Part shown: piece by piece, positions 1,167 to 29,016 of the stretch
Position numbering within the stretch: the stretch's first letter is position 1
Layout: the number at the start of each line of letters is the position of its first letter
Assembly (NCBI GenBank): GCA_963715195.1
Contig: CAVQRT010000034.1
Coordinates: 1 to 30,914 of the forward strand
Reading direction: 5' to 3'
Origin: Thermodesulfovibrionales bacterium
GTDB taxonomy: Bacteria > Nitrospirota > Thermodesulfovibrionia > Thermodesulfovibrionales > SM23-35
DNA: 30,914 nucleotides
Made by a program: the position numbers and the translations under genes
The notes under the pieces: model-generated
Seen by the model: only the letters and a program-made list of their open reading frames with translations
What the model was told of the DNA's origin: nothing
The model's database searches: none

Positions 1167-3588
1167 ATGAAGAGTAAAACTATGTATAGCGTATTCAGCC
1201 TTGCGCTGGGTACGGCATGTGCTGCAACGGCTACAGCGCAAATGGTTCCGGACCGCACCGTGCTGCCCATCCCCGAACCGGACTACCCGCACAGCACAGT
1301 GCTCGACGCCCGCGATGCCACACCGCCGCAACGTTTTGAGGTCAAGGCGCCCGCAGGGGCGCCGAATGTACTCATCGTCCTCGTGGACGACATGGGCTTC
1401 GGCATGCCCAGTGCTTTCGGGGGGCCGGTGCGCATGACGGCAGCCGAAGATCTTGCCGCAAACGGGCTGCGCTACAATCAGTTCCACACCACCGCGGTCA
1501 GTTCGCCAACGCGGACTGCGTTGCTCTCCGGTCGCAACCACCACATGAACAACATGGGCGGCATCACCGAAACGGCCACTGCCTTCCCGGGCAACACGGG
1601 ACAGCGACCGAACAACGTCGCACCGCTGGCGGAGATGCTGCGCCTGAACGGTTACAGCACCGGCTTCTTCGGCAAGAACCATGAAACGGCGCCGTGGGAG
1701 GTCAGCGTCTCCGGGCCGACCGATCGCTGGCCGACCCGTTCGGGATTCGACAAGTTCTACGGTTTCTTCGGCGGCGAGACCGACCAGTGGAATCCCACGA
1801 TCTATGACGGGATGGCTCGAGTCCCCACACCGCACTACGAAGGCTACAATTTCATGACGGACATGACTGACCAGGCCATTTCTTGGATGAAGTTCCAGAA
1901 AGCGCTCACGCCGGACAAGCCGTTCTTCATCTATTTCGCCCCGGGTGCCACCCACGCTCCGCACCACGTGCCCAAGGAATGGATTGCCAAAGTACAAGGG
2001 CAAGTTCGACGAAGGTTGGGACAAGCTGCGCGAACAGACGCTGGCGCGCCAGATCAAGCTGGGCGTGGTGCCGCCGGGCACCAAACTGGCCAACAAGCCC
2101 GAGGCCATCAAGGATTGGGACAAGTTGACCCCCGACGAGAAGAAGCTCTTTGCCCGCCAGATGGAAGTGTATGCCGGCTTTGGCGAATACTGCGATCACG
2201 AGATCGGCCGGTTGTTCGAAGCTATCGGCGAGACCGGTCAGCTCGACAACACGCTGATCTTCTATATCCTCGGCGACAACGGGACAAGCGCCGAGGGCGG
2301 CATGAGCGGCATGTTCAGCGAGATGACGTATTTCAACGGCGTTCAGGAGACGGTTCAGGACATGCTCAAGCATTACGACGACTGGGGCGGGCCTACAACC
2401 TATCCGCACATGGCCGCGGGCTGGGCCGTCGCGGGCGACACGCCCTTTATGTGGACCAAGCAGGTTGCCTCCAACTACGGCGGCACCCGCAATGGGATGA
2501 TCGTCTCGTGGCCCAAGCACATCAAAGCGACGAACCAGATCCGTTCGCAGTGGCACCACGTCATCGACGTTGCTCCCACCGTGCTCGAAGCCGCGCACCT
2601 GCCCGAGCCCAAGAGCGTCAACGGCACGGTCCAGGAACCGATCGAGGGCGTGAGCATGCTCTACACCTTTGACAATGCTCAAGCCAAGAGCACGCACAAG
2701 ACCCAGTATTTCGAGATGTTCGGCAATCGTGCCATCTATCAGGACGGCTGGCTTGCCGGCACCCTTCACCGGGCACCCTGGGAAATGAAGCCGCGGAGGA
2801 AACTGCAGGAGGATATCTGGGAACTCTATGACACACGCAACGACTTCAGCCTGGTCAACGATCTGGCTGCGACCAATCCGAAGAAGCTCAAGGAACTGCA
2901 GGACGTCTTCATGAAGGAGGCGATCAAGAACCGTGCACTGCCCATCGATGACCGCGTCGTTGAACGCGTCAATGCGAAGCTTGCGGGCCGGCCGGACCTC
3001 ATGGGCGATCGCACGTCGCTTACGCTCTCGGAGGGTATGGACTCGATGAGCGAAAACGTGTTCATCAACATCAAGAACCGGTCGCTCTCGATCACGGCGG
3101 ACGTGGAGATCCCGAAAGGGGGCGCGAATGGCGTGATTCTGGCCCAGGGCGGACGGTTCGGCGGCTGGAGCCTGTATCTCAAGGACGGAAAGCCGACATA
3201 CTGCTACAACTTCATCGGGCTGCAGGAATTCAAGGTCGCCGCCACGAAGGCGGTGGCACCGGGCAAGGCCACCATCCGCATGAACTTCGACTATGACGGC
3301 GGCGGTGTCGGCAAGGGCGGTACGGCCACCATTCTGGTCAACGGAGAGAAGGTCGCCAGCGGCCGGATCGAACGCACGCAGGCGATGATCTTCTCGGCCG
3401 ACGAGACGGCGGCGGTTGGCAAGGATGACGCCACGCCGGTCACGGCCGACTACAAGGAACGCGACAATGCCTTCACGGGCAAGATCTTCAAGGTTATCGT
3501 CGATGTGAAGCCCATGGGAGAAGCGATCAAGGCGGAAGCCGCTGCGCCGGCTAAGGAAGCTGCCTATAAGAAAGCGATGTCTGACTGA
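1167..3588 (+). CDS. Arylsulfatase (Ser-type, exported), split by one +1 frameshift near 1988-1991
   Basis: GGAGG RBS; signal peptide; PNVLIVLVDDMG, TTAVSSPTRTALLSGR (SxPxR), GKNH, APGATHAPHH in frame 1. Frame 2 continues with KYKGKFDEGWD, ILGDNG, HHVIDVAPT, WELYD and a C-terminal LamG-like extension. Confidence 0.92.
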
Positions 3589-4163: not shown

Positions 4164-5468
4164 ATGACCGTTAATAAGATGACTACTAAAAAGGATAATT
4201 CAATAGCACTCCATGAATGCGCTGGACAAGGCATTCATGTCGTGGCAAAACCCACTGGTCCTCTTTGCAATCTCAATTGCGAGTATTGCTTTTATCTTGA
4301 AAAGCAGGCACTCTTCGGGCCTGACGAAAATTACAGGATGTCCGATGACGTCCTCTCCGCATTTATAACAAACTACATCACCTCGCAATCCACCCCTATC
4401 GTAGAATTCGTCTGGCAGGGCGGGGAACCGACTCTTGTGGGGATAGATTTCTTTAAGAGGGTGATCGAACTTCAGAAGCAGTTTGCCGGGACTAAGACCA
4501 TAACCAATTCACTCCAGACAAATGGGACACTGCTTACCGATGAGTGGTGTACCTTCCTGAAGAAGCACAATTTCATGGTAGGCATAAGCCTTGATGGTCC
4601 GCAAAAAATTCATGACCGTTACCGACATGACCGCAAAGGCAACGGTACCTTCGAAAGGGTTATGCGGGGACTAAGAATCCTGCAAAAACACAAAGTTGAA
4701 TACAATGTGCTGGCCTGCATTGCCCGAGAAACAGCAAAACATCCGCTTGAGGTTTACCGGTTTTTGAAAGATGAAGGAGTAGAATTCATCCAGTTCTCGC
4801 CGATAGTAGAGCGTATGCCCGATTCATCAAGCAGACAGTTAGGTCTGCGTCTTGCCGGTCCGGTTTCTTTAAACAAAGAGAAAGAGCAGACTCAAATCAC
4901 TCCATGGACTGTTGTCCCCGAAGAATACGGCGACTTTCTCATCGCCATATATGAAGATTGGGTGCACCACGATGTAGGTAAAGTCTTTGTAATGAACTTC
5001 GAGTGGGCGCTTAATGCCTGGATAGGTAATCCATCACCGGTCTGCATTCATGCAAAGACGTGCGGCCGTTCGGTCGTAATTGAACATAACGGTATCGTCT
5101 ATGCCTGTGATCACTGCGTGTACCCAGATTACAGGCTTGGGAATATCAAAACTGAAAAGCTATCAGACATGGTAGAACGATCTCTGCAATCGGGGTTCGG
5201 CTTTACCAAGGAAACTGAACTGCCACGATGGTGCAGGGAGTGCGGAGTGCTGGCTGCCTGCCAGGGCGGATGTCCGAAGCATCGTTTTAAAATGACTCAC
5301 TACAACGAACCGGGGCTTCATTATCTATGTGAAGGATATAAGAAGTTCTTTCTCCATATTCGGAAATATCTGCGTGCTATGGCCCAATTACTTGAAAATG
5401 GTCTTCCCGCATCATATATCATGGATGCTGTCAAGGGCCCACTGGTAATAAAGCTTGACGAGCAGTAA
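4164..5468 (+). CDS. Anaerobic sulfatase-maturating enzyme (radical SAM/SPASM, anSME/AtsB family)
   Basis: AKPTGPLCNLNCEYCFY (CxxxCxxC), WQGGEPTL, LQTNG, ISLDGP; SPASM Cys cluster (YACDH, CRECGVLAACQGGCPKHR, YLCEGY). Confidence 0.95.
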   Translation: MTVNKMTTKKDNSIALHECAGQGIHVVAKPTGPLCNLNCEYCFYLEKQALFGPDENYRMSDDVLSAFITNYITSQSTPIVEFVWQGGEPTLVGIDFFKRVIELQKQFAGTKTITNSLQTNGTLLTDEWCTFLKKHNFMVGISLDGPQKIHDRYRHDRKGNGTFERVMRGLRILQKHKVEYNVLACIARETAKHPLEVYRFLKDEGVEFIQFSPIVERMPDSSSRQLGLRLAGPVSLNKEKEQTQITPWTVVPEEYGDFLIAIYEDWVHHDVGKVFVMNFEWALNAWIGNPSPVCIHAKTCGRSVVIEHNGIVYACDHCVYPDYRLGNIKTEKLSDMVERSLQSGFGFTKETELPRWCRECGVLAACQGGCPKHRFKMTHYNEPGLHYLCEGYKKFFLHIRKYLRAMAQLLENGLPASYIMDAVKGPLVIKLDEQ

Positions 5469-13049: not shown

Positions 13050-13192
13050 TATCTGATTTTGTCAGAAATGCATACAACATGTAGAGACCGCTGCCAAACT
13101 CGAAAAAGAACTCTGTGATCTTCAGGCTAATATTTACTCAAAAGCTCCTCAAGGCTGCTGGGCACAATAATTACTTGCTAAGGTATCAGAAT

Positions 13193-13326
13193 TGCGTGTT
13201 TGATGAAGAAATTGAGCGTCAAGGGGATTTCGAGCCCCGAAAATCACCAAAAGTGTGATGTCCACATGGTAATGTTGATCTTTGGTCTTCTTTGATATTT
13301 AAAGATTTCCGAAGCTACTCTGTACG
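13193..13326. repeat. Non-coding direct repeat, copy 2
   Basis: Aligns to 42-176. Confidence 0.9.
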
Positions 13327-13419
13327 CCGACCACTCTTTATAGTGTAAGCAATTAATCGCTCCTCGAGGTATAATTTTATGTTCTCACGATTGAGAGAGA
13401 CGAAAAAAGAAAGGAGATC

Positions 13420-14266
13420 ATGATGGATAGCAAGAAGGAGAAATCATCGTTATTTTCCCGCCGTAATTTCATAACAAAAGTGGGCATCTTTCTGGCAGGA
13501 GGAATAGCAGGGCATGGTACCAGCTTCGCATCGACGCCGGCCCCAACCGTGGCTGCAGCACCGCCCCTTCCATGGAAATGGGTCAAGCTCGATCCGCTGG
13601 AAGCCGGCAGGCGTGCCTTTCGCGCCTACCTTGAGCACAAAGGGTGAGGGAATGGTACATGGCTGGGGGTCTCCAGCCTTTTAAAAGAGAAAGTTGGTTA
13701 TCCATGGACAACGCTGCCGGACTATATGTTCGAACATGCAGGAGCCGGTTACGCCGGACATGGCACACTCTGCGGTACTCTTGGTGTCAGTTCTTACCTT
13801 ATCAACATGGTCGCCTACGATGACAAAGGAGGCTATGCACCACTCATAGATCGACTGATGTACGGGTACGCTGAGACTGAATTTCCTACTGAATCGTTTT
13901 GATGACATATCTCATTTTCCCAAGCAGGTTAAGGCCAAGGCAATGACACCCCTTTGCCATACGTCTGTATCCAAATGGGTTAACGTCGCAGGAGTCAAAG
14001 TGGATTCTAAAAGCAAAAAGGATCGCTGTGCCAAGGTGGCGGGTGAGGTCGTCTATCAGGTAGTGTCCCATCTCAATGATTACTTTGACGGCAAATGGAC
14101 CCCTCCCAAATGGGAGCCAAAGCCAGAAATCGCACACTGCTGGAAATGCCATGGATCGGACGATATGTTTTATGAAAAGGTAAGTCTTAACAGTCAGCAG
14201 GGGCATATGGACTGCCTGATGTGCCACACGGATCACACGAAGAAAAAGAAACAGACAAAGAAATAG
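13420..14266 (+). CDS. Tat-exported split-Soret-type diheme cytochrome c (C-GCAxxG-C-C family), probable selenoprotein; TGA at 13645-13647 read as Sec; +1 frameshift near 13890-13895
   Basis: Tat motif SRRNFI, then PLPWKWVKLDP. Read through the TGA: HKG-U-GNGTWLGVSSLLKEKVGYPWTTLPDYMFEHAGAGYAGHGTLCGTLG...YAETEFP. After the frameshift: RFDDISHFPKQV..TPLCHTSVSKW..KKDRCAKVAGEV..CWKCH..CLMCH (two CxxCH). Confidence 0.88.
13645..13678 (+). promoter_or_regulatory. Putative bacterial SECIS element
   Basis: 13 nt after the TGA: GGCTGGG-GGTC-TCCAGCC, a 7-bp stem with a G-starting 4-nt loop about 20 nt downstream of the UGA. Confidence 0.7.
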
Positions 14267-14289
14267 ACATTATCCGGGAGGAGCTAAAC

Positions 14290-15562
14290 ATGAGAAGAAG
14301 AGTCATCGCAGGTATTCCTTGCGGTGGCAGTAATGACATTTGCTGCCGGATTCAGCGCATTTGCTGCTCAAGAGGAGGCGGCGCCGATCATCAATACAGG
14401 ATTTTTCGAGCGCGATACACTTACCGGCGACTGGGGCGGCGCCCGACCCTGGTTGAAAGAACGTGGAATCACGCTCAAGCCCCGGCTTACCCAGTTCTAT
14501 CAGGGGATGACTTCCGGTGATGATGATCACGACTTTGAATACGGCGGCAAGGCTGACCTCCTGCTTAATGCCGACCTCAGCAAGCTCGGTTTTTGGAAGG
14601 GGTTATCCTTGACCGTCCATGCTGAATACAATTTTGGCGAGAGCGTCAATGGACGTGGTGGCACGATAGCGCTGGCCAATACCGCGCTGTACTTTCCGGG
14701 AATCGAAGGCTGGGATCGCTCTGACCTTTCGAGCGTCTATCTGGGGCAGAGGTTTGGCGACTCCGTTTCCCTGGTGTTCGGCAAGATGAACATGATCGAT
14801 CTCTCGGGTGCCAGACCATTCGCGGGCGGCGCCGGCATTGACTCATTCTGGAATGTCGTCTTCGTTGCCCCGCCCAGCGGCACTGTACCGCCTTACCTTT
14901 TTGGTGCCCTACTAAGCGTGCGGACCGAGACCGCCACTTTCGGCTTGTGGATCTATGACCCGGTTGATGCTACGAACAAGACAGGCTTCGAAGATCCCTT
15001 TAACGATGTCACGTTCCGCGGGAGCGTTGAATTCCCCGTCACCATTGGTGGCCTCAGCGGCCATCAGGGATTTGTCGCTTTATACAGTACCGAAAAAGGC
15101 AATGCTCCGGACACTTCTGACGGCATTCTTCTTCCCCGTTCCCTCTCCGTTGGCATCAAGAACGATCGTTACTACTTCGCGTATACGTTCGACCAGTATC
15201 TCTATCAGTCGAAAGAGAATCCCAGGGAAGGCGTTGGGCTGTTTGGACAGTTCGGCATCTCGGACGGCAATCCCAACAGGCTCTACTGGTCGGCCCATGT
15301 GGGCTTGGGCGGTACCGGCTTGATTCCGGGCAGAAGCCGGGACAATTGGGGCGTCGGCTACTATTACGCTGCCCCGAGCACCGATCTGAAGGATTCGCTT
15401 GCACGCATCCTGAAAATCAGGGACGAACAAGGCGGGGAGATTTTTTACAACTTCACTGTGACACCATGGCTCACCGTAGGCGCAGACCTGCAGGTAATCA
15501 AACCCAGTCTGGCAGATGACACGGCCGTCTTTTCCGGTCTCCGCACAGTGATCAAGTTTTGA
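14290..15562 (+). CDS. OprB-family (carbohydrate-selective-type) porin; +1 frameshift in the signal region near 14312
   Basis: GGAGGAG RBS before ATG 14290; TLTGDWGGARPWLKERGI, DLSKLG, GLIPGRSRDNWGVG, EIFYN..VTPWL..DLQVI, terminal F. Confidence 0.88.
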
Positions 15563-15671
15563 GGGTTAACGGTCAAACAGTTATATCAAGGCGGCCGGGC
15601 TTAGTTAATAAATAAAGCGCTATATAACCTATGGTTCTTTTATAGAACCCAAAAAAAGAAAGGAGATCATC

Positions 15672-16951
15672 ATGGATAGCAAGAAAGAGAAATCATCATT
15701 AGTTACCCGTCGCGATTTCTAAAAACAGGCAGCATTGTAATGGCAGCGGCAGCAGCAGGGATTGGTACTGGCATCGCTGAGGCAGCTGAGACTAAAAAGA
15801 AACTCAGCACGGTGCCGTTGAATTGGAAAGAGGTGTACTACACCAATTGTCCCCTCGTGTCCGCCAGCAATGTCGACCAGGAACTGGGTTGGACCAGAGA
15901 GGAGTACAAGAAGATCGGCGTCAAGTACGCTTTTCTCCGCTCCCGTCGCGAGAACGACTGGTATCCGCACTACATCCACAACCTCGACAACCTCATCCGC
16001 TTCGGCGGTTTGTTCCCCCCCATCCACGTTCAGGCGGACATCCGCAGGACCAGGCTCCTGGGGTTGACGCACGCACCACACGAAGGCGGCTGCATGATGG
16101 TGCGCTCCAGGGACGACATCTACCGGATGACCGAACTGAAAGGCAAGAAGATCGGCCTCTCGAAGAGCCTGAACACCATCAAGAACGACTGGTGGCGCAT
16201 CCAGGAGGAACAGGGCATCGAGCTGATGCTCAGGATGAACGGCATGACCCGCAAGGACGTGGAGATTGTGGAGTTCCCCTACCCGGATGACTGGTACAAC
16301 AATCCCGAAGATGCTGGATCCCATGGATAACCCGTCTGAATTGTGGCTCAAGCGTGACCACAAGCACGACCTGGCCTTCCGTCCGCTGGAGACCGCACTG
16401 GAAAAGGGCATCGATCGATGCGATCTATACTCAAAGCAAGCCTTTGCAGCAGCTCTCAGGAGGCGACGGGCAAGTTCAAGGCGATCGAGGACCTGTCCCG
16501 GTATCCGGACTGGACCCTGCAGGTGGCCAATATCCCCGCCGCCATCACCTGCACCGATGTGATGGCCGAGAAGCACCCCGAGCTCGCCGTCACGTTCATG
16601 AAAGGCATGATCAAGGTGGGACGCTGGGCCAACGAGCACAAGCACGCCGCGGCGGCGATCCTCGACAAGCAGACGTTCTACCTGGACGTCGAGCATACCT
16701 ACAGAGGCATCAAGGACATCGACATGGTGCCCAACCTGTCGCCCCAGAACCTGGCCTCTGTCGAGATCGGGAAGGACTTCATGCTGAGCCACGGCTACAT
16801 CAAGAACGACTTCGATGTGCAGAAGTGGGCCGCGCCGGAATTCCTTGAACAGGCGTCAAGGGAACTGTTGGAAGAAGAATGGAAGAAAAGGACCACTTCA
16901 AAACTTCCTGAGGCAGCTGCACCGCTGGGATCCGGGGAAAGGCTCGGGTAG
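15672..16951 (+). CDS. Tat-exported DszB-like / SsuA-type periplasmic binding-fold protein (possible desulfinase); four apparent frameshifts (~15720, ~16307, ~16412, ~16456)
   Basis: MDSKKEKSSLVTRRDF Tat leader; YYTNCPLVSA, HYIHNLDNLIRFGGLFPP, RTRLLGLT, ELKGKKIG, IDAIYTQ, HPELAVTFMKGMIKVGRWA, DFMLSHGYIKNDFDVQKWAAPEFL stitched over five frame segments. Confidence 0.82.
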
Positions 16952-17038
16952 TCAGGAGAAAGCTTAGAGGGGGGGTGCCCCCTCCCCTAACCACCGGCTA
17001 TAGTGCAGTGGGACACACAATAGAAGGAGAAGCTGGAT

Positions 17039-17704
17039 ATGAATGAACTCAATGCAGAAATGTTAAGGAACTGTTTCGCGGGCAAACGGGCTTTGGTGTC
17101 CCTGCTCCTGGTTGCCGTCATCGGCTTCGCGGCCACTGCAAGCCTTGTTGGAGCGGAGACCGGGAAGCCCGCTTCCGTGGCCGTGAACCGCCAGCTTCCC
17201 AAGGGGAAACAAACCACCCTTGGCCTCTACGTGACGGCCAAAGAAGCTTATGAAATGTGGAAAGCCGCGCCGGATAAGGTGAAGGTGATCGACGTGCGGA
17301 CCCCCGAGGAGTTTGCCTTTATCGGCCACCCGGAGATGGCAAGGAACATTCCCTTTGCCTTTGTGACCTATCAGAGAAAAGACGGCACGATTGAATACAG
17401 CGTGAAACTCAATTCGGATTTTGTCACCGAGGTAAAAACAATAGCCGGGCCGACCGATACCCTGCTGCTCATGTGCCGGTCAGGTGACCGCTCTGCCATG
17501 GCAGTCAACCAACTCGCGGCAGCCGGCTTCAAAAACGTTTACACCATCACTGACGGGATGGAAGGGGACAAGGTGGACGATCCCGGAAGCGTCTTTTTTG
17601 GGAAGCGGATGCGAAACGGTTGGAAAAACTCGGCACCTTGGACCTATAGCCTCGATCCCGAGAAATTCATCCTTAAAAAAGGCGCATCTAAGCAAACACA
17701 ATAA
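17039..17704 (+). CDS. Exported rhodanese-domain sulfurtransferase
   Basis: Hydrophobic N-terminal segment; VIDVRTPEEF, active-site loop MCRSGDRS, ITDGMEGD, NGWK. Confidence 0.92.
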   Translation: MNELNAEMLRNCFAGKRALVSLLLVAVIGFAATASLVGAETGKPASVAVNRQLPKGKQTTLGLYVTAKEAYEMWKAAPDKVKVIDVRTPEEFAFIGHPEMARNIPFAFVTYQRKDGTIEYSVKLNSDFVTEVKTIAGPTDTLLLMCRSGDRSAMAVNQLAAAGFKNVYTITDGMEGDKVDDPGSVFFGKRMRNGWKNSAPWTYSLDPEKFILKKGASKQTQ

Positions 17705-17799
17705 TCGAAATAATACAGCAAGGACTAAAAGGAGGAAGAGAATGAAATTAATGAGTTATACCAGAAACGAAAGCGATCGAAGTATCTGCAGGCACGAGG

Positions 17800-18576
17800 A
17801 TGTTGAGCAGGTTGGCTCTTTTTGTTTTCCTGTTCCTCATGCTTGTCACAGTGATGCCTGCCAGTGCGACAGCGGAAGAGACAGCACAGAAGGATGGCTG
17901 GCAATTCGGTGCAAATATTTATATGTGGATGCCAACTATCGGCGGGAAAACTGCCAGCGGGGATACCATCGAAATAAACTTTGATGACATCCTCAAAGAC
18001 CTTGAATTTACCTACATGGGTGGTATTGAGGCACGCAACGGTAGATGGCATCTCACAACGGATATCATTTATATGAATCTTGAGCAAGATAACAATCGCA
18101 AAGTGACCGTGCTTGACGGGAGCGGTCTCAAGGTTGATGCCACGGTGAAGCTCCAGTCCTGGGTCGTAACACCTGCTGTCGGCTACAGCTTCATCGAGAC
18201 TGAAAAGGTCAGGATGGAAGTTCTCGCCGGTGCGCGCTATCTCTGGCTGAAGCCGGAACTGGACCTCGATGTTACCGGTCCACTGAAGTCAAGAGATAGG
18301 CATATCTCTGATTCGGGAGATGTGTGGGATGGCATTGTTGGTATCAGGGGCAATCTGAACCTGGACAAGAATTGGTATGTTCCGTACTACATTGACATTG
18401 GTACCGGTGAGAGCAACTTAACCTGGCAGTGGATGGCGGGTTTCGGCTGCAAGGTCAGCAGGGTGGTGGATGTGGTAGCAGCATGGCGTTATCTGTATTG
18501 GAAGTTTGATGATAATAAAGTGCTCGACAATCTTTACATCAACGGTCCAATGGTCGGGGTAAAGTTCCGGTTCTAA
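17800..18576 (+). CDS. Outer-membrane beta-barrel hypothetical protein
   Basis: Signal peptide; W.F....Y.W, GARYL, DGIVG, YIDIGTG.S.LTWQ, terminal GVKFRF. Confidence 0.8.
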   Translation: MLSRLALFVFLFLMLVTVMPASATAEETAQKDGWQFGANIYMWMPTIGGKTASGDTIEINFDDILKDLEFTYMGGIEARNGRWHLTTDIIYMNLEQDNNRKVTVLDGSGLKVDATVKLQSWVVTPAVGYSFIETEKVRMEVLAGARYLWLKPELDLDVTGPLKSRDRHISDSGDVWDGIVGIRGNLNLDKNWYVPYYIDIGTGESNLTWQWMAGFGCKVSRVVDVVAAWRYLYWKFDDNKVLDNLYINGPMVGVKFRF

Positions 18577-18630
18577 AGAAACATGGGTGGAAATATCTAT
18601 AACCAAATTATTGAGATAGAAAGGGATAAA

Positions 18631-19086
18631 ATGAACAAAAACAAAGCGGTATGGAATTCTATTCGTGTATGCGTTGTTGTTTTCTTGATAACGTCGTTCC
18701 TGGGCTGTATTGCCGCTATTCCGGTGGCAATCAAGTATGCGAAAAGCAAGGAAGGGTATGTCGCAGAGGCAGAAATACCGGCACCGGCAGAGAAAGTCTA
18801 TGCTGCAGCCATCACTCTGGCCGAAGAACGAGCTCCCGTTGTGAAAATACTGAATCGGGATGATGCAAAACTCCTGCTTGAAGTGACGGATGACATACAG
18901 AAAGCCTCTTTCAAAGCTGAGTCAATCAGCCAGGATAAAACAGCAGTTATCGTGAAAGCAGATGTTCCGAAGGTTGAGGGCAAGGAAAAGGAGTATGAAA
19001 AGGAACAGGAAAAGGAGCTGGCGCTGCGTATCATTCATAACGTGTGCGACAGGCTTGGTGTAAAATATACGATAATTAACCAATAA
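18631..19086 (+). CDS. Putative lipoprotein (DUF3568-like)
   Basis: Lipobox-like FLG-C after a hydrophobic stretch; AGGGA upstream of ATG 18631. Confidence 0.65.
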   Translation: MNKNKAVWNSIRVCVVVFLITSFLGCIAAIPVAIKYAKSKEGYVAEAEIPAPAEKVYAAAITLAEERAPVVKILNRDDAKLLLEVTDDIQKASFKAESISQDKTAVIVKADVPKVEGKEKEYEKEQEKELALRIIHNVCDRLGVKYTIINQ

Positions 19087-19111
19087 GAACGAGCAAGGTG
19101 TGGGCGGATCA

Positions 19112-19284
19112 TTAGTTCCTGTGTATTAACTAGGGTTTTCACAGAGTGTCGTCATTCGCACCCCCGTGTTCACGAGGGTAAACTCCGGCGGGAATCCAAT
19201 TTATTCAATCCCGAAGGTTTTCGGGAATGGATCCCCCGGTCAAGCCGGAGGATGACGAAATATAAGTTTATACACAGAATCTAA
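19112..19284. mobile_element. MITE-like element with ~20-bp terminal inverted repeats and an internal GTCATT...GGGAATCC...GATGAC palindromic unit
   Basis: TTAGTTCCTGTGTATTAACT (19112-19131) versus AGTTTATACACAGAATCTAA (19265-19284); the core resembles ~29249-29372. Confidence 0.65.
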
Positions 19285-19297
19285 CGCCATATCAGAG

Positions 19298-19318
19298 TTC
19301 CACGAGCTTGCCCGTGGG
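19298..19318. repeat. REP/IS200-605-end-like hairpin
   Basis: CCACGAGC-TT-GCCCGTGG imperfect palindrome. Confidence 0.45.
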
Positions 19319-19351
19319 TATCTTAATAATCATTCAAGGGAGGAAAGAAAG

Positions 19352-19765
19352 ATGAAAAAGATGTTGGTTGTGATTTTGAGTTTATGTGTAGTGGTGCTTA
19401 TTGCGGGTTCTGCTTTTGCCGGAGAAAAGGGGCTGGTCCAAATTGTTGCTGACGGATGCAAGAAGGATATTGAAACCTACTGTAAAAATGTGACGCCCGG
19501 AGAGGGGCGCATCCTCGCATGTCTCTACGCATATCAGGACAAGCTTTCGAACCGTTGTGAGTATGCACTGTATGATGCTGCTGCCCAGCTTGAGCGGGCT
19601 ATTGCCGCGCTCACCTTTCTCGTTAATGAATGCAGGGACGATCTGAAGGCATATTGTTCGGATGTCAAGCCCGGTGAAGGACGGCTCATCAATTGTATTG
19701 ACAAGAATATGAAAAAGGTCAGCAACCGTTGCAAACAGGCGATAAAGGATGTTGCTCAGAAATAG
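19352..19765 (+). CDS. Exported cysteine-rich repeat protein (Cys_rich_FGFR-like, two repeats)
   Basis: C..D...C..V.PGEGR...C.......S.RC occurs twice; signal peptide AFA. Confidence 0.85.
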   Translation: MKKMLVVILSLCVVVLIAGSAFAGEKGLVQIVADGCKKDIETYCKNVTPGEGRILACLYAYQDKLSNRCEYALYDAAAQLERAIAALTFLVNECRDDLKAYCSDVKPGEGRLINCIDKNMKKVSNRCKQAIKDVAQK

Positions 19766-19801
19766 AACACAGAAAGTTTAAGTTAGGAGAAAGGGGAAAA
19801 T

Positions 19802-20308
19802 ATGAAGAAAAGAGCAGTTATCAGCATAATGTTTAGTTTGGTGATCGTTCTGTTCGCGGTCATCACAGTGATGGGAAATGCTTCAGCACAGTCGATTTCA
19901 TCTTCCCTCGGGCTTGCACCGTATCCCTCGAAGGGACAGTCTGCTCAGCAACAGAACAAAGATGAAGGTGAATGCTATGCATGGGCGAAGCAGCAGACCG
20001 GGATCGACCCGGTTGCAGTGGCAAGTACTCCTACTCAGCAGCCTGGTCCGGCAGCGGGTGGTGGTGAGAGGGTACGTGGCGCTGCGCGCGGCGCACTTGG
20101 AGGAGCAGCGATCGGTGCCATCGCAGGTGATACCGGAAAGGGCGCAGGCATCGGCGCAGTTGCTGGTACCATGGCCGGCGGCAGGCAGGCGAGGCAGAAC
20201 AAGGCAGCTCAGCAGCAGCAGGCTGAGCAGGCAAAAGCCGGGACACTTCAGCAATTCAACAATGCGTTCAGTGCATGTATGGACGGCCGGGGCTATGCGG
20301 TTAAATAA
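19802..20308 (+). CDS. Glycine-zipper (YMGG-like) exported protein
   Basis: YPSKGQS..QQ.KD..ECY.WA, GAARGALGGAAIGAIAG..GKGAGIGA, ACMDGRGYAVK. Confidence 0.85.
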   Translation: MKKRAVISIMFSLVIVLFAVITVMGNASAQSISSSLGLAPYPSKGQSAQQQNKDEGECYAWAKQQTGIDPVAVASTPTQQPGPAAGGGERVRGAARGALGGAAIGAIAGDTGKGAGIGAVAGTMAGGRQARQNKAAQQQQAEQAKAGTLQQFNNAFSACMDGRGYAVK

Positions 20309-20321
20309 GGAGAAAATACAA

Positions 20322-20717
20322 ATGAGAATAATTGTAAGTTTAATATTATTCGGTTTATTCGTGACTGTTTCTCCGGCATTTGCTGGAGATGTCTTTGACG
20401 GCACAAAGCCCCTCCTTTGTTCAAGCATAGAGGCCCTTGATTGTGATCCGGGGGTGACATGTGAAAGAGGTATCCCTGAGATTATGGGTGCCCCGCAATT
20501 CTTGCGGATCGATTTTACAAAAAATGAAATTGCAGGACCTTTGAGGACAACGAAGATTCGTTCGATGGAGAAGGATGACGACCAGATCGTTCTTCAGGGA
20601 TACGAGATAGGGCTGGGCTGGACTCTCGCCGTTAATCGTGTTACTGGCAATATGAGAATAACCTTCGCTGGATCGGATGCATCTTTCATTATCTTCGGTG
20701 CCTGCACACCGCTTTAA
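20322..20717 (+). CDS. Small exported hypothetical protein (four Cys)
   Basis: AAGGAG RBS before ATG 20322; signal peptide ..PAFA; FDGTKPLLC..C....C, terminal FGACTPL. Confidence 0.75.
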   Translation: MRIIVSLILFGLFVTVSPAFAGDVFDGTKPLLCSSIEALDCDPGVTCERGIPEIMGAPQFLRIDFTKNEIAGPLRTTKIRSMEKDDDQIVLQGYEIGLGWTLAVNRVTGNMRITFAGSDASFIIFGACTPL

Positions 20718-20849
20718 GGAGAAATCGGTGATAGCATGCGCGAGGGGGAGAATCTATTCCCGGAGTTGATATTCTGCATAATCGCTCCTACGCTTGCGTG
20801 TTACCTTCCTCTTGTCCGGGGAGAGGAAGAAAGAAAAGTGAAGTGAGTA

Positions 20850-21983
20850 ATGCCAGAATTGCCACAGATAACCTTTGAACAAATCTCCGGTGATACAATT
20901 GCCGTCCGGCTATCCGGCGACTGGAACATTCAGGAAAAGCTTCCTTCCTCAGATGAGTTGCAGAAGCATATCGAAAGCCGCACAGGTATTCAGCGCCTTG
21001 TTTTTGATGCAGGAAACCTTAAGGGCTGGGACAGCGGACTCCTCGTATTCCTGACAAAGGTTATTGATATCTGCGAAAAGAAGAACATCCCTGTCGAGCG
21101 GGATGGCCTGCCGGAGGGGGTGAAACGGCTCTTGCATCTTGCCTCTGCAGTTCCAGAAAGAAAAGGGGCCAAAAGAGGCGTGTCAAAAACTCCTTTTTTA
21201 GAACGGGTTGCAGATATATCAATCGGCGGATGGCGTTCATTGCTCGAAATGCTAACCTTTATCGGTGAAGCATCTATCGCCTTTTCAAATCTATTCAGAG
21301 GCAAAGCCCGTTTCCGGCGTTCAGATCTGTTCCTGATTATACAGGAAACCGGGGCACAGGCTTTGCCCATTGTATCATTGATCAGTCTCCTTGTGGGTCT
21401 TATCCTTGCCTTTATCGGGGCAATACAGCTCAAAATTTTCGGTGCGCAAATCTATGTCGCCAGCCTTGTCGGTATCGGAATGGTCCGGGCGCTTGCAGCA
21501 GTGATGACCGGCATTATCATGGCCGGCCGCACCGGGGCGTCTTTCGCCGCCCAACTCGGAACTATGCAGGTAAACGAAGAGATAGATGCGCTGAAAACGC
21601 TTGGTATCTCACCCATGGAATTTCTGGTATTGCCGAGAATGCTCGCCCTTTTTCTTATGATGCCCTTATTGAGTCTTTATGCCGACCTGATGGGAATTCT
21701 AGGAGGGTTATTCATCGGTGTGTCGATGCTTGATCTGGGGTTCATAGAATACTTCAATAAGACACGTGAGTCGGTATCTCTGAATGACTTCTGGGTCGGA
21801 CTTTTCAGTGCCGCGGTCTTTGGGGTCCTCGTGGCGCTTGCCGGGTGTCTCCGGGGAATGCAGTGTGGCAGAAGCGCCTCAGCAGTCGGTGAAGCGACAA
21901 CCTCTGCAGTGGTTACCGGCATTGTGAGTATCGTTGTGGCTACAGCAATTATAACCATCATTACTAATGTATTGGGAATCTGA
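20850..21983 (+). CDS. mlaE: MlaE-family ABC permease with N-terminal STAS domain
   Basis: LSGDW, WDSGL, AGRTGASFAAQLGTMQVNEEIDALKTLGISPMEFLVLPR, VGEATTSAVV. Confidence 0.92.
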   Translation: MPELPQITFEQISGDTIAVRLSGDWNIQEKLPSSDELQKHIESRTGIQRLVFDAGNLKGWDSGLLVFLTKVIDICEKKNIPVERDGLPEGVKRLLHLASAVPERKGAKRGVSKTPFLERVADISIGGWRSLLEMLTFIGEASIAFSNLFRGKARFRRSDLFLIIQETGAQALPIVSLISLLVGLILAFIGAIQLKIFGAQIYVASLVGIGMVRALAAVMTGIIMAGRTGASFAAQLGTMQVNEEIDALKTLGISPMEFLVLPRMLALFLMMPLLSLYADLMGILGGLFIGVSMLDLGFIEYFNKTRESVSLNDFWVGLFSAAVFGVLVALAGCLRGMQCGRSASAVGEATTSAVVTGIVSIVVATAIITIITNVLGI

Positions 21984-21992
21984 ATGAAAAGA

Positions 21993-22224
21993 AGGGTTCG
22001 AGGATTCAAGGGGTCAAGTGCAAGCTCTTATTATGAACAAGGTCATAAGTGAGACCAAATAAGTTGTCATTCCCGCAAGCGAAGCGCGTCGGGAATCCTT
22101 CTGCAAACAAAGAAAGATTCCGGACAAGCCGGAATGACATGGATGCTGAACGGTGCTTTGCTAATGACCGCATTATTACGTCTTTTGAGAATAGACGCTC
22201 GAATCCTCGAAACTTTGAACCCTT
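21993..22224. repeat. Nested palindromic intergenic element
   Basis: 8-bp-periodic arms (GGGTTCGA GGATTCAA GGGGTCAA ... CTCGAATC CTCGAAAC TTTGAACC) enclose TGTCATTCCCGC..GGGAATCC..GATTCCGGACAAGCCGGAATGACA (~22065-22139). Confidence 0.65.
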
Positions 22225-22237
22225 TTAAATAGATACC

Positions 22238-23014
22238 ATGAATCAACAATCAGAACCTCATATAATCGTAAAGGACCTTACCATGGCCTATGGTGATTTC
22301 CTCATCCAGCGCGACCTGACTTTCACGGTCAACAGGGGGGATATCTTCATTGTCATGGGAGGAAGCGGTTGCGGCAAGAGCACGCTGCTGCGTCACCTTG
22401 TCGGCCTCCAGCAGCCTGCAAAAGGACAGGTACTTTACGATGGAGTGAGTTTTTGGGACACGGAACCGGAGGATCGCAAGCGAATCATGAAGCGCTTCGG
22501 AATCCTCTATCAGAGCGGCGCGCTCTGGAGCTCCCTGACTCTTGCAGAGAATGTGGCTCTTCCGCTGCAGGAATATACTGACCTGAGGTCTGAACAGATT
22601 AGCGAACTTATTTCTCTGAAACTCTCACTTGTCGGGCTTGCAGGTTTTGAGGAATACTATCCATCGGAGATCAGCGGAGGCATGAAGAAACGTGCAGGTC
22701 TGGCGAGGGCTATGGCTCTTGACCCCGAAATACTTTTTTTCGATGAGCCTTCTGCGGGACTTGATCCGATCAGTGCTCACCTGCTTGATGACCTGATCCT
22801 TGAACTGAGGGACAGTCTCGGTGCAACCGTGGTAGTCGTCACCCATGAACTTGCGAGCATCTTTGCCATAGGAAACAACTCGGTTTTTCTCGATCCGGAG
22901 ACAAAGACGATGATCGCCGGCGGAGATCCCAAAAAACTCCTTGCGGAGTCGAAGGATCCGAAAGTCCACAGTTTCTTAACAAGGGGGAAAGAAGATACGG
23001 TAATAACGCGTTGA
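22238..23014 (+). CDS. mlaF: MlaF-family ABC ATP-binding protein
   Basis: GGSGCGKST, LYQSGAL, ISGGMKKRAGLARA, FFDEPSAGLDP, VTHEL. Confidence 0.93.
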   Translation: MNQQSEPHIIVKDLTMAYGDFLIQRDLTFTVNRGDIFIVMGGSGCGKSTLLRHLVGLQQPAKGQVLYDGVSFWDTEPEDRKRIMKRFGILYQSGALWSSLTLAENVALPLQEYTDLRSEQISELISLKLSLVGLAGFEEYYPSEISGGMKKRAGLARAMALDPEILFFDEPSAGLDPISAHLLDDLILELRDSLGATVVVVTHELASIFAIGNNSVFLDPETKTMIAGGDPKKLLAESKDPKVHSFLTRGKEDTVITR

Positions 23015-23078
23015 TGAATTTAAAACGAAAAAACAAGGCAGTAATGCTTTTTGAGAGAGTAACAGAAGGAGGGAAAAC

Positions 23079-24077
23079 GTGAGCAAACCGGCGAACAAAA
23101 CACTGATCGGTGCCTTTGTCCTGGGTGCCGTGGCTCTTGTTGTAGCGGCGGTGATGGTCTTCGGCTCGGGAAAGTTCTTTTCGAAAAAGAACACCTATGT
23201 GATGTTTTTTGATGGATCGCTGAAGGGACTTAATGTAGGTTCCCCTGTTATGTTCAAGGGTGTGAAAATTGGTGAAGTTACGAGTATCAAATTGCTTTAC
23301 GATCCCAATGAGCTATCTGCCGTTATCCCGGTTTATGTTGAAATCGATCCAGAGAAATTTACAATCCCTGGTGAGATGCAACAATCGATACTTGAAAAGA
23401 TGAGACGATATGTATATCTGAAGCCGCTCATAGAAAAGGGTCTTAAAGCTCAGCTTCAGACACAGAGCTTTGTGACAGGACAATTAATGATCGGTGTTGA
23501 TTTCTATCCCGAGAAACCGGTCAGAATGGTCGGCCTTGACAAGAAGTATCCGGAAGTTCCTACTATCCCTACCAGCCTTCAAGAAGTGGCCAAAACGCTC
23601 GAACAACTTCCCCTGAAGGACATCGTAACGAAGCTGGACCTTACAATCGACGGTATTCAGAAGCTTGTTAATTCTCCCGAAACAAAGGAGAGCATAGAGT
23701 CGCTCAATCAAACATTAAAAGATACCCGGAAACTTGTGCAGCATGTTGACGAAAAGATTACCCCGCTGATGGAGAGTCTTACAGAGACTTCTGACGCTGC
23801 CAATGCTGCGCTCGTTCAGGCAAAAAACACGATGACTGGAATAGAAGGTGATGCAAAAGAACTCATGCAGTCAACGAAGGAAACCATCGAGACTGCTGAG
23901 GCGACGCTGAAGCAGGCTGAGAAGACTCTGTCTACCTTCTCCGGTGACTCGCGTCTCGTATATGAACTAAATACTACTCTCAGCGAGCTGTCGGGGGCCG
24001 CGCGCTCTATGCGGTTTCTGTCAGAATATCTTGAACAGCATCCTGAAGCCCTGCTGACGGGCAAGAAACAAAAGTAG
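23079..24077 (+). CDS. mlaD: MlaD/PqiB-type MCE protein
   Basis: IGAFV TM anchor, GLNVGSPVMFKGVKIGEV, LQTQSFVTGQ, helical tail ending YLEQHPEALLTGK. Confidence 0.9.
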   Translation: MSKPANKTLIGAFVLGAVALVVAAVMVFGSGKFFSKKNTYVMFFDGSLKGLNVGSPVMFKGVKIGEVTSIKLLYDPNELSAVIPVYVEIDPEKFTIPGEMQQSILEKMRRYVYLKPLIEKGLKAQLQTQSFVTGQLMIGVDFYPEKPVRMVGLDKKYPEVPTIPTSLQEVAKTLEQLPLKDIVTKLDLTIDGIQKLVNSPETKESIESLNQTLKDTRKLVQHVDEKITPLMESLTETSDAANAALVQAKNTMTGIEGDAKELMQSTKETIETAEATLKQAEKTLSTFSGDSRLVYELNTTLSELSGAARSMRFLSEYLEQHPEALLTGKKQK

Positions 24078-24088
24078 AGGAGACCGAC

Positions 24089-24709
24089 ATGAAGAACTCT
24101 TATGGTTATCGTTTTCTAATTTCAGGCATATTTTTTCTTCTGGTACTGGGCGGATGCGGCAGCACCCAGCCGTCACGGTTTTATACACTCGACTCGGTTG
24201 GAAATCATGAGGTAGGAAACCAATCGGTTCCAGCCGATTACAACATTTCCGTTTCTATCGGGCCGGTAGATATCCCCGACTATCTTGACCGCCCCCAGAT
24301 TGTCAGTCGCACCAGCCAAAATGAACTCTCTCTATCAGAATTCGACAGGTGGGCAGGTTCACTGAAGGATGATATCGTGCGCGTCCTCTCTGAAAATCTC
24401 ACGAATCTCCTATCACAAAACTCTGTATTTGTCTCACCGTGGGGAAGGGGTATTGTGAGCGACTACCAGGTAACCATCAACATAAGGCGCTTCGATGCCA
24501 TGCCGGAAGGGAATATTCTGCTGAACGCACAATGGACTATTATCGGGAAGGAGGGAACGCAGATAGTCCGTATGAGGGAATCATTTATTACTGAATCAAT
24601 GAGCGCACAAACGTATTCTGCAAAGGTTTCCGCAATGAGTGGAGCACTCGAGAAGCTCAGCCGGGATATTGCGGAGGAAATTAAGGCTGTCTCTAAAAAA
24701 AATAAATAG
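24089..24709 (+). CDS. pqiC: PqiC-family ABC auxiliary lipoprotein
   Basis: Lipobox LGG-C, RFYTL, IGPVDIPDYLDRPQIV, DRWAGSL, RFD. Confidence 0.88.
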   Translation: MKNSYGYRFLISGIFFLLVLGGCGSTQPSRFYTLDSVGNHEVGNQSVPADYNISVSIGPVDIPDYLDRPQIVSRTSQNELSLSEFDRWAGSLKDDIVRVLSENLTNLLSQNSVFVSPWGRGIVSDYQVTINIRRFDAMPEGNILLNAQWTIIGKEGTQIVRMRESFITESMSAQTYSAKVSAMSGALEKLSRDIAEEIKAVSKKNK

Positions 24710-24846
24710 CATGAGGAGGAAGAGATGCAAAATGTGATATCCATGCTTTCTTCTTCGCCTCTTCCTCTTCACGTTAGCGAATTAGTCTGGGTGGTGAAAA
24801 GAGGGGGATCCCTCTCCTTTGTTGCACAAAATTTAAGGAACAAGCA

Positions 24847-24879
24847 AGAACTCCCTGCGCTCTTGGCGCAGGGTTCTTA
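24847..24879. repeat. GC-rich hairpin (REP/IS605-end-like or terminator)
   Basis: CCCTGCGC-TCTTG-GCGCAGGG flanked by AGAAC/GTTCT. Confidence 0.45.
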
Positions 24880-24881
24880 AG

Positions 24882-24910
24882 TAGACAAAAGTACATAATA
24901 TTGGTATGTT
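24882..24910 (+). promoter_or_regulatory. Putative sigma70 promoter for the patatin gene
   Basis: TAGACA-17 bp-TATGTT with TG extension. Confidence 0.4.
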
Positions 24911-25009
24911 TATTAACAATAATTCAATGGCATATATTAACCATATAAAGTCTATGTCATATGGAGGGATATTTATTATTGTTTCTTCTCATTACAAAGG
25001 GGTGAAATT

Positions 25010-27238
25010 ATGGCCAGTTTGAAAAAGATAACAAAAACAGTAACGGTCGTTTTTGCCATACTTTTTTTATTATGCATTCTTTCCCCCGGTTCGTCTTTTG
25101 CCGAAGAAACAACGAGACCGAAGATTGGCCTTGTGCTGGGCGGCGGCGGAGCAAAGGGGGCAGCGCATATCGGGGTGCTGAAGGTATTGGAAGAGCAGAA
25201 GATACCGGTCGATTATATCGCGGGGACGAGTATGGGAGCGATTGTTGGCGGCTCTCTATGCATCAGGACTTACTGCCGGCGAACTCGAGAAGGTGATCAC
25301 CGCAATCGACTGGAAAGATGTGTTTTCGGGTGATCCGGACCGTCGGGACATCGACTACCGGCGGAAACGAGGAAGACTACGATAATCTTACCAGGCTATC
25401 GGTGGGCATTAAGGACGGCAAGGTAGTCACGCCCAAGGGCCTCATCAAGGACCAGAAGGTGAATGTGCTGTTCGAGACGCTCATGCTCCACACTTCGGGT
25501 ATCGATGATTTCGACAAACTGCCGATCCCCTACCGGGCTGTTGCTGCAGACCTCGAGACCGGCGAGATGGTCGTGCTCAAGGGAGGGCGGCTTGCAGATG
25601 CTGCACGGGCCAGCATGTCTGTGCCGGGCGCATTCCCCCCTATCGAGCTGAACGGCAGGCTTCTGATTGACGGCGGCATTGTCCGGAATGTCCCGGTCGA
25701 CATCGTGCGGGAAATGGGTGCAGATATTATCATCTGCGTCGATGTCGACAAGCCCATGGCGACGAGAAAAGACCTCGGTGGAAGCCTTTCAATCCTGAAC
25801 CAGATGATCGACATCATGATGAAAAAGAACGTCAAGGAGCAGGTCAAAACCCTTGGCCCGCAGGATGTCTACATCAATCCGGAGCTTGGCGAACTCGGCT
25901 CAGGAGACTTTGACAAGGCTGCAGAGATTGCCCGTCTCGGGGAAAAGGCCGCCCGGGAAAAGATCGACAGCCTGAAGAGATATTCAGTTTCAGACAGCGA
26001 GTATGCGGCTTTTGCTGCCCGACATCACCGCGAGCAGGTGAAAGAGGTGAAGGTCGCTGCCGTGAAGATCGAGATGGAGGGTGAGAGCAAGATATCGCCG
26101 GATTACGTTGCCAGCAGGCTGACGGTCAAGCCCGGTGACACTGTTGACGTCGAGCAAATGAAAGAGCAGGCCGGCAGAGTATACGGCACAGGCGATTTCG
26201 AGCGTGTGGACCTGCATATGAAGAGGCAGCAGGACGGCTATGACCTTATCGTGAAGGCGAAGGAAAAGTCCTGGGGGCCGAATTACCTCCGTGTCGGCAT
26301 AGCCCTCGAAAGCGACTTCAAGGGATCGAGCAGCTACAACATCCTTGTTGATTACACCCGGCGATGGATGAACAGCCTGGGCGCTGAATGGAAGACACAG
26401 GTCAATTTGGGTTCTCCGAGCGGTATCTACTCGGAATTCTACCAGCCCCTTTCCGTGAATCGACTTTTTTTCATATCCCCGCATGCTGAATGGAAGCAGG
26501 ATCCGGTGGATGTCTATGACGGGCACGAACGGGTCGCCGAGTACCGCATAACGAGCTATGAGGGCGGAATCGACTTTGGCATCCAGCCATGGATGTATGG
26601 CGAGGCAAGAGTCGGCCTTCAATTCGGAAATTTCAGGGCAGAGCTCGATAAGCGGTGACATTGATCTCCCGACGGACGATGTTACACGCGGGGCCATCGT
26701 TGTTCAGGCACGGCTTGATCAACTTGATAATGTGAATTTCCCCAATAACGGGTACCGGGCACAATTCAGATCCATCTCATCACTGAAAGCCCTGGGTTCG
26801 GATGACGAATACAACAAGCTTCAGGGAAGCATCCTGGGCGCCTTCACCTTCAGGAAGCAGACGATCCTTGCATCCCTCACAGCAGGCACTTACATAGGCA
26901 ATGATCTCCCATTCTATGATACGTTTACCCTTGGCGGGATATTTAACCTTTCAGGGCTATCTACCGGGCAGCTCCGTGGTCAGACTATGGCGATTGGAAA
27001 GCTGATTACCTATCATAGAGTGGGTTCTTCGTTCATCGGCGACCTCTATTTTGGCGGATCACTCGAAAGCGGAAATGTATGGATGGAGGACGAGAAGAAC
27101 TTTGATCTCACTAACCTTCGCCTGGCCGGAAGCGTGTTCGTCGGTTACGATACGATCTTCGGCCCTCTGTACTTAGCCTTTGGGCATGCTGACGGAGGTT
27201 ATAATGCCGGTTACTTTTATCTCGGCAGGCCGTTCTGA
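25010..27238 (+). CDS. Patatin-like phospholipase with POTRA and Omp85-type barrel (PlpD/type Vd-like); three +1 frameshifts (~25252, ~25368, ~26640)
   Basis: Signal peptide; [21 protein letters not shown], then (second frame) [68 protein letters not shown]. Confidence 0.9.
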
Positions 27239-27370
27239 CAGATGGATATGCTATTATATTGTGATTCGAAAAGGGGGTGAGATAAGTAACTGTCAATGAA
27301 GTCTGTTCTGTGATGTAAAAAGTTATAAGATTGATGCACAAAAATATCGTGTAAAAGGAGGAAAGGACAC

Positions 27371-28195
27371 ATGAGTAACACAAAAAAGATTTTTGTTGTA
27401 TTCCTTGCATTTGCATGTGCATTCCTGGTCGCACATTCCGCACAGGCGCAGGACATGCCTTTCGGAATCGACAACGTACCCAACATCGTAGGCATAGGTG
27501 GCGGTATGCTGCCGGACTATTTAGGTTCGGATGATTACATGGGTGGGGCAGCACCGTTTTTCAAATATACCCCCGAAAATACTGAATACTATGTGATGCT
27601 TATCGCAACACAAATGTATGTAAATCTGGCAAATCATCCAACAATCCGTTTTGGACCTACAATCAACTACAGATTTGGGCGTAATGATGATGTAGACGAT
27701 AAGGCTGTAAAGAAGATGGAAGAGATAGAGGGGACCGTTGAGGCCGGTGCATTTGTTGGGTATGAGTGGAAGGATAGCCAGAATCCCCTCCACCGGTGGG
27801 GCATTACCCTGGATATCCTCGGTGACGTAGGCAACGAATATAAGGGATACCTGATATCTGCCTCTGCCCGCTACTGGTATCCGGTGCACAAGATGGTCGA
27901 TCTCGGCCTTAACGTCGGTACAACCTTTGCCGATAACAATTATATGGAAACCTACTTCGGAGTGAGCGAGAAAGATTCGGATAGGTCAGGGCTTTCGATG
28001 TTCAACGCAAGGGAAGGCTTCAGAGAAGTGCGCGTTATTCCCGCGGTTGTTGTGCACTTCAGCCCCCAGTGGCATACCGGTATTGGTGTGCGTTACGCTC
28101 GTTTGCTTGGCGATGCTAAAGACAGCCCTGTTGTCGATGATCGTGGCGATGCCAATCAGTGGATATACGGACTTGCTGTTGCCTACGCGTGGTAG
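27371..28195 (+). CDS. MipA/OmpV-family outer-membrane protein
   Basis: PDYLGSDDY, EAGAF, YMETYFGV, YARLLGDAKDSPVV, terminal YAW. Confidence 0.9.
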   Translation: MSNTKKIFVVFLAFACAFLVAHSAQAQDMPFGIDNVPNIVGIGGGMLPDYLGSDDYMGGAAPFFKYTPENTEYYVMLIATQMYVNLANHPTIRFGPTINYRFGRNDDVDDKAVKKMEEIEGTVEAGAFVGYEWKDSQNPLHRWGITLDILGDVGNEYKGYLISASARYWYPVHKMVDLGLNVGTTFADNNYMETYFGVSEKDSDRSGLSMFNAREGFREVRVIPAVVVHFSPQWHTGIGVRYARLLGDAKDSPVVDDRGDANQWIYGLAVAYAW

Positions 28196-28377
28196 TTTAG
28201 TGAATTAAAATATCCCCTCTCTTGGCGGATGACCATAATTCACGTGTTGACCTTCTTTCGACACGATGAGGGGATAATATATGATGAGTGAAATTCATTG
28301 AGAGGAGGTGAGATCAACTTATAGGGGGATAAAGAAGATCTCTATAGTCTAATACGTTATAAAAAGGAGGATACATT

Positions 28378-29001: not shown

Positions 29002-29016
29002 ATTGGCGGTTTTGTG

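Follow-up and report, generated by a model that had tools for sequence, protein, structure and literature searches.

A split-Soret-like diheme cytochrome c gene with an in-frame UGA codon predicted to encode selenocysteine in a Thermodesulfovibrionales bacterium

We analyzed a window of 30,914 nucleotides on contig CAVQRT010000034.1 of a Thermodesulfovibrionales bacterium (assembly GCA_963715195.1), in which one gene carries an in-frame TGA (Table 1). The predicted protein begins with an S/T-R-R-x-F type motif followed by a hydrophobic stretch, as found in substrates of the Tat pathway, and tatC occurs twice in the genome; matches to Tat signal profiles were weak only (TIGR02811, E 0.05). With a full-length homologue as query, tblastn covered the gene in two frames. 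The frame of the UGA codon stays open beyond it for 84 further codons, to 13899, just as an earlier note on this DNA had stated, and ends at two consecutive TGA codons (13900-13905). The TLCG, PLCH, DRCA, and two CxxCH motifs that the note described as intact are all present, but PLCH, DRCA, and both CxxCH motifs lie in another frame. The frame is split by a single additional base at ~13890-13893, absent from the relatives, an insertion that was overlooked when the locus was presented as a single read-through gene without a frameshift. An Rfam scan of the window returned no match, and a promoter and terminator scan of 13050-14500 found nothing on the + strand.

Table 1. Features of the cytochrome gene in the window and homologous loci adjoining fdhA
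Feature	Position	Strand	Size, basis, or remark
Whole gene, Sec-containing split-Soret-like diheme cytochrome c (predicted)	13420..14266	+	~281 aa allowing for the frame break
Shine-Dalgarno-like AGGAG upstream of start	13412..13416	+	sequence
Start ATG	13420	+	sequence
Tat motif SRRNFI in signal peptide	13456..13473	+	sequence; RR invariant in homologue alignment
In-frame UGA, codon 76, read as selenocysteine (predicted)	13645..13647	+	Cys column in homologues; TGA in other loci
SECIS-like hairpin (stem of 7 bp; GGUC loop, first base G)	13661..13678	+	folding and comparison; geometry like selD hairpin
Second conserved Cys (TLCG), residue 118	13771..13773	+	homologue alignments, sequence
Extra base relative to homologues (frame break)	13890..13893	+	DNA alignment; contigs of related strains
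Third conserved Cys and following His (PLCH), residues 179-180	13955..13960	+	homologue alignments, sequence
Fourth conserved Cys (DRCA), residue 203	14027..14029	+	homologue alignments, sequence
Heme c motif 1, CWKCH	14138..14152	+	aligns with first CxxCH of 1H21 through P0001
Heme c motif 2, CLMCH	14213..14227	+	aligns with second CxxCH of 1H21 through P0001
fdhA-adjoining UGA loci	L013:3762, L019:3770, L028:3738, L072:3607		extended: L096-L098

The earlier assignment to the split-Soret/C-GCAxxG-C-C family held up by both sequence and model. A Cys-containing homologue, P0001, aligned with the split-Soret cytochrome c of PDB 1H21 at an E value of 6e-30, with the four Cys and both CxxCH motifs in register. 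An AlphaFold2 model of the unbroken protein of locus L006, the closest relative (pLDDT 75, with a weak heme domain), matched only 1H21 in Foldseek (E 4e-10), and its comparison with that structure gave a Z score of 23.1 and an rmsd of 3.6 over 204 aligned residues, against Z 4.5 for the next structure. Profile scores were as follows: on NF047622, the Desulfovibrio-type Ssc equivalog with a cut-off of 400 bits, the L006 read-through product scored 118 and P0001 148.9; on PF09719 (cut-off 27 bits), L006 scored 23.3 (E 7e-5) and P0001 passed with 45.9; and on TIGR01909, P0001 scored 19.6 against a cut-off of 47.4 bits. Pfam on the two halves of the window's gene and PF09719 on the genome gave no match because the gene is broken and divergent. 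Two C-terminal CxxCH motifs and four conserved non-heme Cys positions were found in the window protein, the first Cys position being the predicted Sec and the C-terminal half lying in the other frame. With the Ssc of Desulfovibrio desulfuricans ATCC 27774 (1H21; NF047622), it shares the fold and, through P0001, the positions of the four Cys and two CxxCH motifs, and the profile is covered end to end. It differs from that Ssc in being only ~26% identical, in having Sec in place of the first Cys, and in the extra conserved His of its subfamily (H105, H113, H238, H261, and H271 in L006 numbering). Judged by sequence and model, the window protein is of split-Soret cytochrome c build and belongs to a separate subfamily.

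In the column of UGA76, Cys stood in 92 of 92 full-length homologues and in 98 of 99 full-length distant representatives, so the UGA falls at the first of four conserved Cys, as had been proposed from the letters of the window. The remaining three Cys were kept in 99, 98, and 97 of the 99 distant representatives. A search of a genome collection gave 73 loci, of which L077 and L078 were left out because their match ends before the codon. At the 71 alignable loci from other genomes, the codon was TGA in 26, TGC in 41, and TGT in 4, although the UGA share of 26/71 is biased upward by search patterns that were derived from the window protein. Titles of the UGA carriers named Nitrospirota, Syntrophobacteraceae, Syntrophorhabdaceae, Desulfobacteraceae, other deltaproteobacteria, one betaproteobacterium, and one Bacteroidales bin. 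We built a quick maximum-likelihood tree of 77 rows, leaving out short or split matches, in which a single branch (SH-aLRT 100) set the 24 UGA rows apart from the 53 Cys rows. A single Cys-to-Sec change would fit the UGA forms being one clade, and since they are one clade, they count as one origin and not as 26 independent tests. With the same TGA present in other genomes, neither a sequencing error nor a private nonsense mutation can account for this codon. At least among the rows listed from contigs of related strains, no other letter was found at 13645-13647.

Several copies of the family were found close together or in the same genome. Genome G010 holds two UGA paralogues (L079 and L091), locus L058 has two Cys copies 2.7 kb apart, and joints consistent with tandem copies occurred in two sequencing runs of relatives. 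Contigs over the gene were also present in one RNA-library run of a relative, which is not evidence of transcription.

The hairpin described in the earlier note, with G in a small apical loop, lies 13 nt after the UGA (GGCUGGG-GGUC-UCCAGCC, stem +14 to +31) and has a folding energy of -11.8 kcal/mol. This energy was not unusual when pieces of 43-101 nt were shuffled (z -0.75 to +1.61), and only a 31-nt piece stood out (z -2.15; 6 of 200 shuffles). The significance of the hairpin comes from comparison across TGA sites and between UGA and Cys copies, not from energy alone. Among randomly drawn TGA sites of the genome, 23 of 6000 folded as well at the same offset. For the comparison between copies, L076 was dropped because of a frameshift right after the codon and L018 was re-read one codon on. 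We counted the hairpin as present when 5 or 6 of its 6 outer pairs formed; this was so in 27 of 27 UGA copies versus 1 of 44 Cys copies, and energies averaged -11.6 and -3.7 kcal/mol, respectively.

Degenerate conserved codons inside the hairpin (CTG, GGG, and AGC; n = 3) were invariant and the 23 outside it were 46-83% uniform, while the first loop base, at +21, was G in 24 of 24 distinct sequences. Residue 81 was Tyr in 92 of 92 Cys proteins and Trp in all 27 UGA copies, in which TGG forms the foot of the stem; the protein sequence at this residue thus appears to have given way to the RNA element. Across the stem, 97.6% of cells pair, two pairs vary on one side, four never vary, and compensatory (two-sided) changes numbered 0 among the 24 distinct sequences; part of the hairpin's conservation is shared ancestry. 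In the same genome, a 7-bp stem capped by a GAUC loop lies downstream of the selD UGA at +15, a nearly identical geometry, and the UGA of fdhA also has a G-loop hairpin.

All four genes on which the earlier note had made its reading depend (selA, selB, selC, and selD) are present in the source genome. Both selA and selB lie on contig C2 and selD, with an in-frame TGA, on C7, all above their cut-offs; tRNA-Sec (selC) with anticodon UCA lies on C15 and scored 73.4 bits with RF01852, also above cut-off. Among genomes carrying the UGA form, 22 of 26 had selA, versus 20 of 44 carrying the Cys form (Fisher p 0.002, which is overstated as kin are not independent). Of the four UGA-form genomes without a selA match, selD with a TGA was found in three and selB in two. 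One UGA carrier, G059, which is titled Bacteroidales and holds locus L024, had no selA, selD, selB, or tRNA-Sec above cut-off. Its copy was nearest to a deltaproteobacterial copy in the quick tree, and either mis-binning or a non-functional transfer is possible. Judging from codon column, hairpin, and gene content, UGA76 is almost certainly decoded as Sec in the UGA clade.

The extra base at ~13890-13893 was seen in a DNA alignment with five relatives, all of which lack it. In each of the 4 public runs compared, all of them from relatives, contigs of related strains lacked one base at 13890-13892; the best run shared 0.21 of words with the window. Most of the homologous loci that we fetched read in a single frame, and L006 (89.7% identical) has one frame and one TGA. 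Other genes are broken as well, including a sulfatase, a binding protein (15669-16951, several shifts), and a patatin/Omp85 gene in the window, and the genome's fdhA and one tuf copy outside it. In a small survey of the genome for frameshifts, 4 of 17 places were in two frames, one of them doubtful. As neighboring genes, fdhA, and tuf are also frameshifted, indel errors in the assembly are favored, and the frame break is probably one of them.

A less likely alternative is decay of an accessory region, in which the Sec codon would be genuine in the lineage, the extra base real, and the window copy a recent pseudogene. The break does stand in the assembly, several genes of the contig are broken, and the gene is patchy in kin. 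Specifically, a search of 40 relatives recovered the close form only in G010, which is of the same family, and otherwise distant Cys homologues; among 24 same-family genomes it occurs in G010 alone, and none of 3 same-genus genomes has it. However, apart from the break the gene is intact and close to L006, the inserted base creates a short run of A, and breaks in fdhA on another contig and in a tuf copy are what would be expected from an indel-prone assembly. We consider a recent pseudogene unlikely, albeit not negligibly so, and retain an assembly error as the preferred reading of the frame break.

Some observations concern the contigs more generally. The sulfatase (1167-3588, + strand) and the patatin/POTRA/Omp85 gene (25010-27238, + strand) are split across frames, and a radical SAM sulfatase maturase (4164-5468) is intact. 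The two tuf copies, C36:20472-21657 and C31:125561-126800, share only 85% identity, and the G+C of C36 is higher (0.51). Some contigs may be foreign, given an estimated contamination of 6.6%, the two tatC copies, and the divergence between tuf copies.

Our reading of the locus is that one gene would encode a periplasmic, Tat-exported split-Soret-type diheme cytochrome c with selenocysteine at UGA76. In this mechanism, the hairpin at +14 to +31 would recruit SelB with Sec-tRNA and so allow Sec to be inserted, a step that is strongly supported. We take the iron center of 1H21 to be an iron-sulfur site bound by the four conserved Cys. By homology, Sec76, Cys118, Cys179, and Cys203 would form a non-heme iron (iron-sulfur) site in the N-terminal domain, which would explain the use of the Tat pathway, and two c-type hemes would be attached at the C-terminal CxxCH motifs. 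The genome contains tatC, cytochrome c assembly genes, and dsrA. The protein may act as a low-potential periplasmic electron carrier in the anaerobic respiration of this dsrA-bearing bacterium, with a periplasmic formate dehydrogenase as the most plausible electron source, and selenium may tune the iron site in its potential, lability, or tolerance of oxygen. Taken jointly, Sec decoding, an iron site, a diheme carrier, and an assembly indel make up an explanation that we hold to be likely. For the role of Sec76 as a ligand of the iron site, homology gives us moderate confidence. The title of PDB 1H21 refers to a novel iron center, and split-Soret cytochrome c is described as a dimeric diheme protein with stacked hemes in the title of a reference of PMC8840924 and as low-potential and exported in a passage of PMC8359318. 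Mutants of ssc in Desulfovibrio alaskensis had little phenotype according to a passage of 10.1101/005694.

Sec76 could instead be a catalytic redox residue wired to the hemes, acting as a selenol or selenenylsulfide with a neighboring Cys or in the handling of sulfane sulfur, in which case the protein would be an enzyme rather than a carrier and Sec76 would not be a metal ligand. There is precedent in MccSep, an ExtKL-type multiheme cytochrome c of Geobacter sulfurreducens in which Sec is essential for polysulfide reduction (PMC13510729). Pfam names the family 'putative redox-active protein', the window holds a rhodanese gene further downstream, and heme-less relatives retain the same four positions. 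However, the solved homologue 1H21 has an iron center per its title, four invariant Cys and Tat export fit a cofactor loaded before export, and no CxxC or UxxC motif is present. MccSep resembles the window protein in having Sec inside a c-type cytochrome of anaerobic respiration, but it is a tetramer with five hemes and a catalytic Sec beside a Cys-ligated heme, its paper never mentions split-Soret, and it shows no sign of homology here. A catalytic Sec seems to us improbable relative to an iron-site ligand, though it deserves consideration.

Far weaker is the notion that the TGA is a plain stop, whether through a nonsense mutation, a sequencing error, or a 75-aa leader followed by a separate downstream protein. 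Databases do hold fragments of such genes, namely one of 75 aa that stops short of the UGA and others that start with MFEH or MFAH. Indel errors in the assembly and the lack of Sec machinery in G059 are likewise compatible with a stop. Nevertheless, the same TGA recurs in 26 other genomes of several phyla with frames otherwise open, the signal peptide upstream is conserved, the hairpin is confined to UGA copies, and selA is enriched, and we regard a plain stop as highly improbable. It is equally hard to credit that UGA is read as Cys or Trp through a changed code or a suppressor tRNA, for which we found no support: the UCA-anticodon tRNA is tRNA-Sec by its RF01852 match, ordinary TGA stops end genes in the window, and selD and fdhA too carry UGA where Sec is known to occur, each with a similar hairpin.

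The neighborhood of homologous loci offered a candidate partner for the predicted Sec-containing carrier. At 4 of 27 UGA loci, the cytochrome gene was found 50-80 nt before a Tat-exported, UGA-bearing fdhA; none of 45 Cys loci had this arrangement within 3 kb. In the extended fdh loci, fdhB came next in 3 of 3 and fdhE was present in 2 of 3; no cytochrome subunit was seen in these loci (n = 3). Three of the four fdh-linked loci grouped at a support of 80 in the quick tree, and the fdh-linked loci probably represent one event. The link is absent from the window, where an OprB porin and a sulfonate-type binding protein follow the cytochrome gene. The genome's own Sec fdhA-fdhB-fdhE cluster lies at C3:44729-49421, with an fdhA that has a UGA, a hairpin, and two frameshifts, and no obvious cytochrome gene was found there among ORFs of ≥ 110 aa. 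Neighbors vary across the family, and no conserved operon was found. Formate dehydrogenase is a possible partner, but a somewhat doubtful one. A Sec formate dehydrogenase linked in one subclade provides a testable partner for a family without an established role.

In a bolder and rather unlikely proposal, the soluble periplasmic cytochrome, with its natural Sec ligand at an iron-sulfur site, would supply the cytochrome subunit that a Sec formate dehydrogenase lacks. The order ssc-fdhA-fdhB-fdhE would then describe a formate-oxidizing module of two selenoproteins. The site may even be catalytic, with sulfur compounds as possible substrates, and would thereby give the split-Soret family its first defined function.

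Published lists agree with the earlier note that Sec forms had been predicted in the family. Table 1 of PMC9312934 includes the C-GCAxxG-C-C family protein WP_012158890.1 among predicted selenoproteins, C-GCAxxG-C-C selenoprotein forms 1 and 2 appear in Table 1 of PMC13188914, and NCBIfam names TIGR01909 a '(seleno)protein' family. The sequence of WP_012158890.1 (PF09719, form 2) is given in the supplement of PMC12013277. Compared by eye, it shares with the window protein a Tat-like leader, K-G-G-U-G, YPF, TLCG, the third Cys, and an RC motif. It has one Sec, which is predicted only, and differs from the window protein in lacking any CxxCH and hence the diheme domain. Form 1 is the 'putative redox protein' of Olavius symbionts with a SECIS downstream of the UGA, as described in a passage of PMC1976440. 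Its Sec likewise replaces the first conserved Cys of the C-GCAxxG-C-C family, but it is ~140 aa in length and has neither a signal peptide nor heme.

What may be new here is the known Sec position on a diheme architecture; Sec forms of the family were already on published lists. An earlier selenoproteome paper may have used the name split-Soret for such a protein. The combination of Sec with a diheme domain was not found in print in a search largely limited to papers outside subscription. There was no mention of a split-Soret selenoprotein in the main text or supplement of PMC13326102, the main text of PMC12013277, or the main text and four supplements of PMC2398784.

These results do not establish a new kind of system, given the Sec forms already listed for the family. 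Rather, they correct the annotation of one gene clade, found in genomes of Nitrospirota and deltaproteobacteria, whose members gene callers have cut up. They also bring to light natural Cys/Sec pairs at what would be one ligand position of the split-Soret iron site. Such pairs are a ready comparison for the effect of selenium on an iron-sulfur center near hemes.

Further genes of the window merit description. An SsuA-like ABC substrate-binding protein gene (15669-16951, + strand) encodes a leader, MDSKKEKSSLV-T-RR, that is nearly the same as the leader of the cytochrome. This likeness suggests that the Tat leader was duplicated between the binding protein and cytochrome genes. A homologue of the binding protein lies within 3 kb of the cytochrome gene in 9 of the 73 loci compared. 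From 14324 to 30710, the window holds a run of envelope genes, including those for the OprB porin, outer-membrane barrels, an Mla-type ABC transporter, MipA, and DUF3300. OprB, DUF3300, and similar genes recur near homologues of the cytochrome in several loci.
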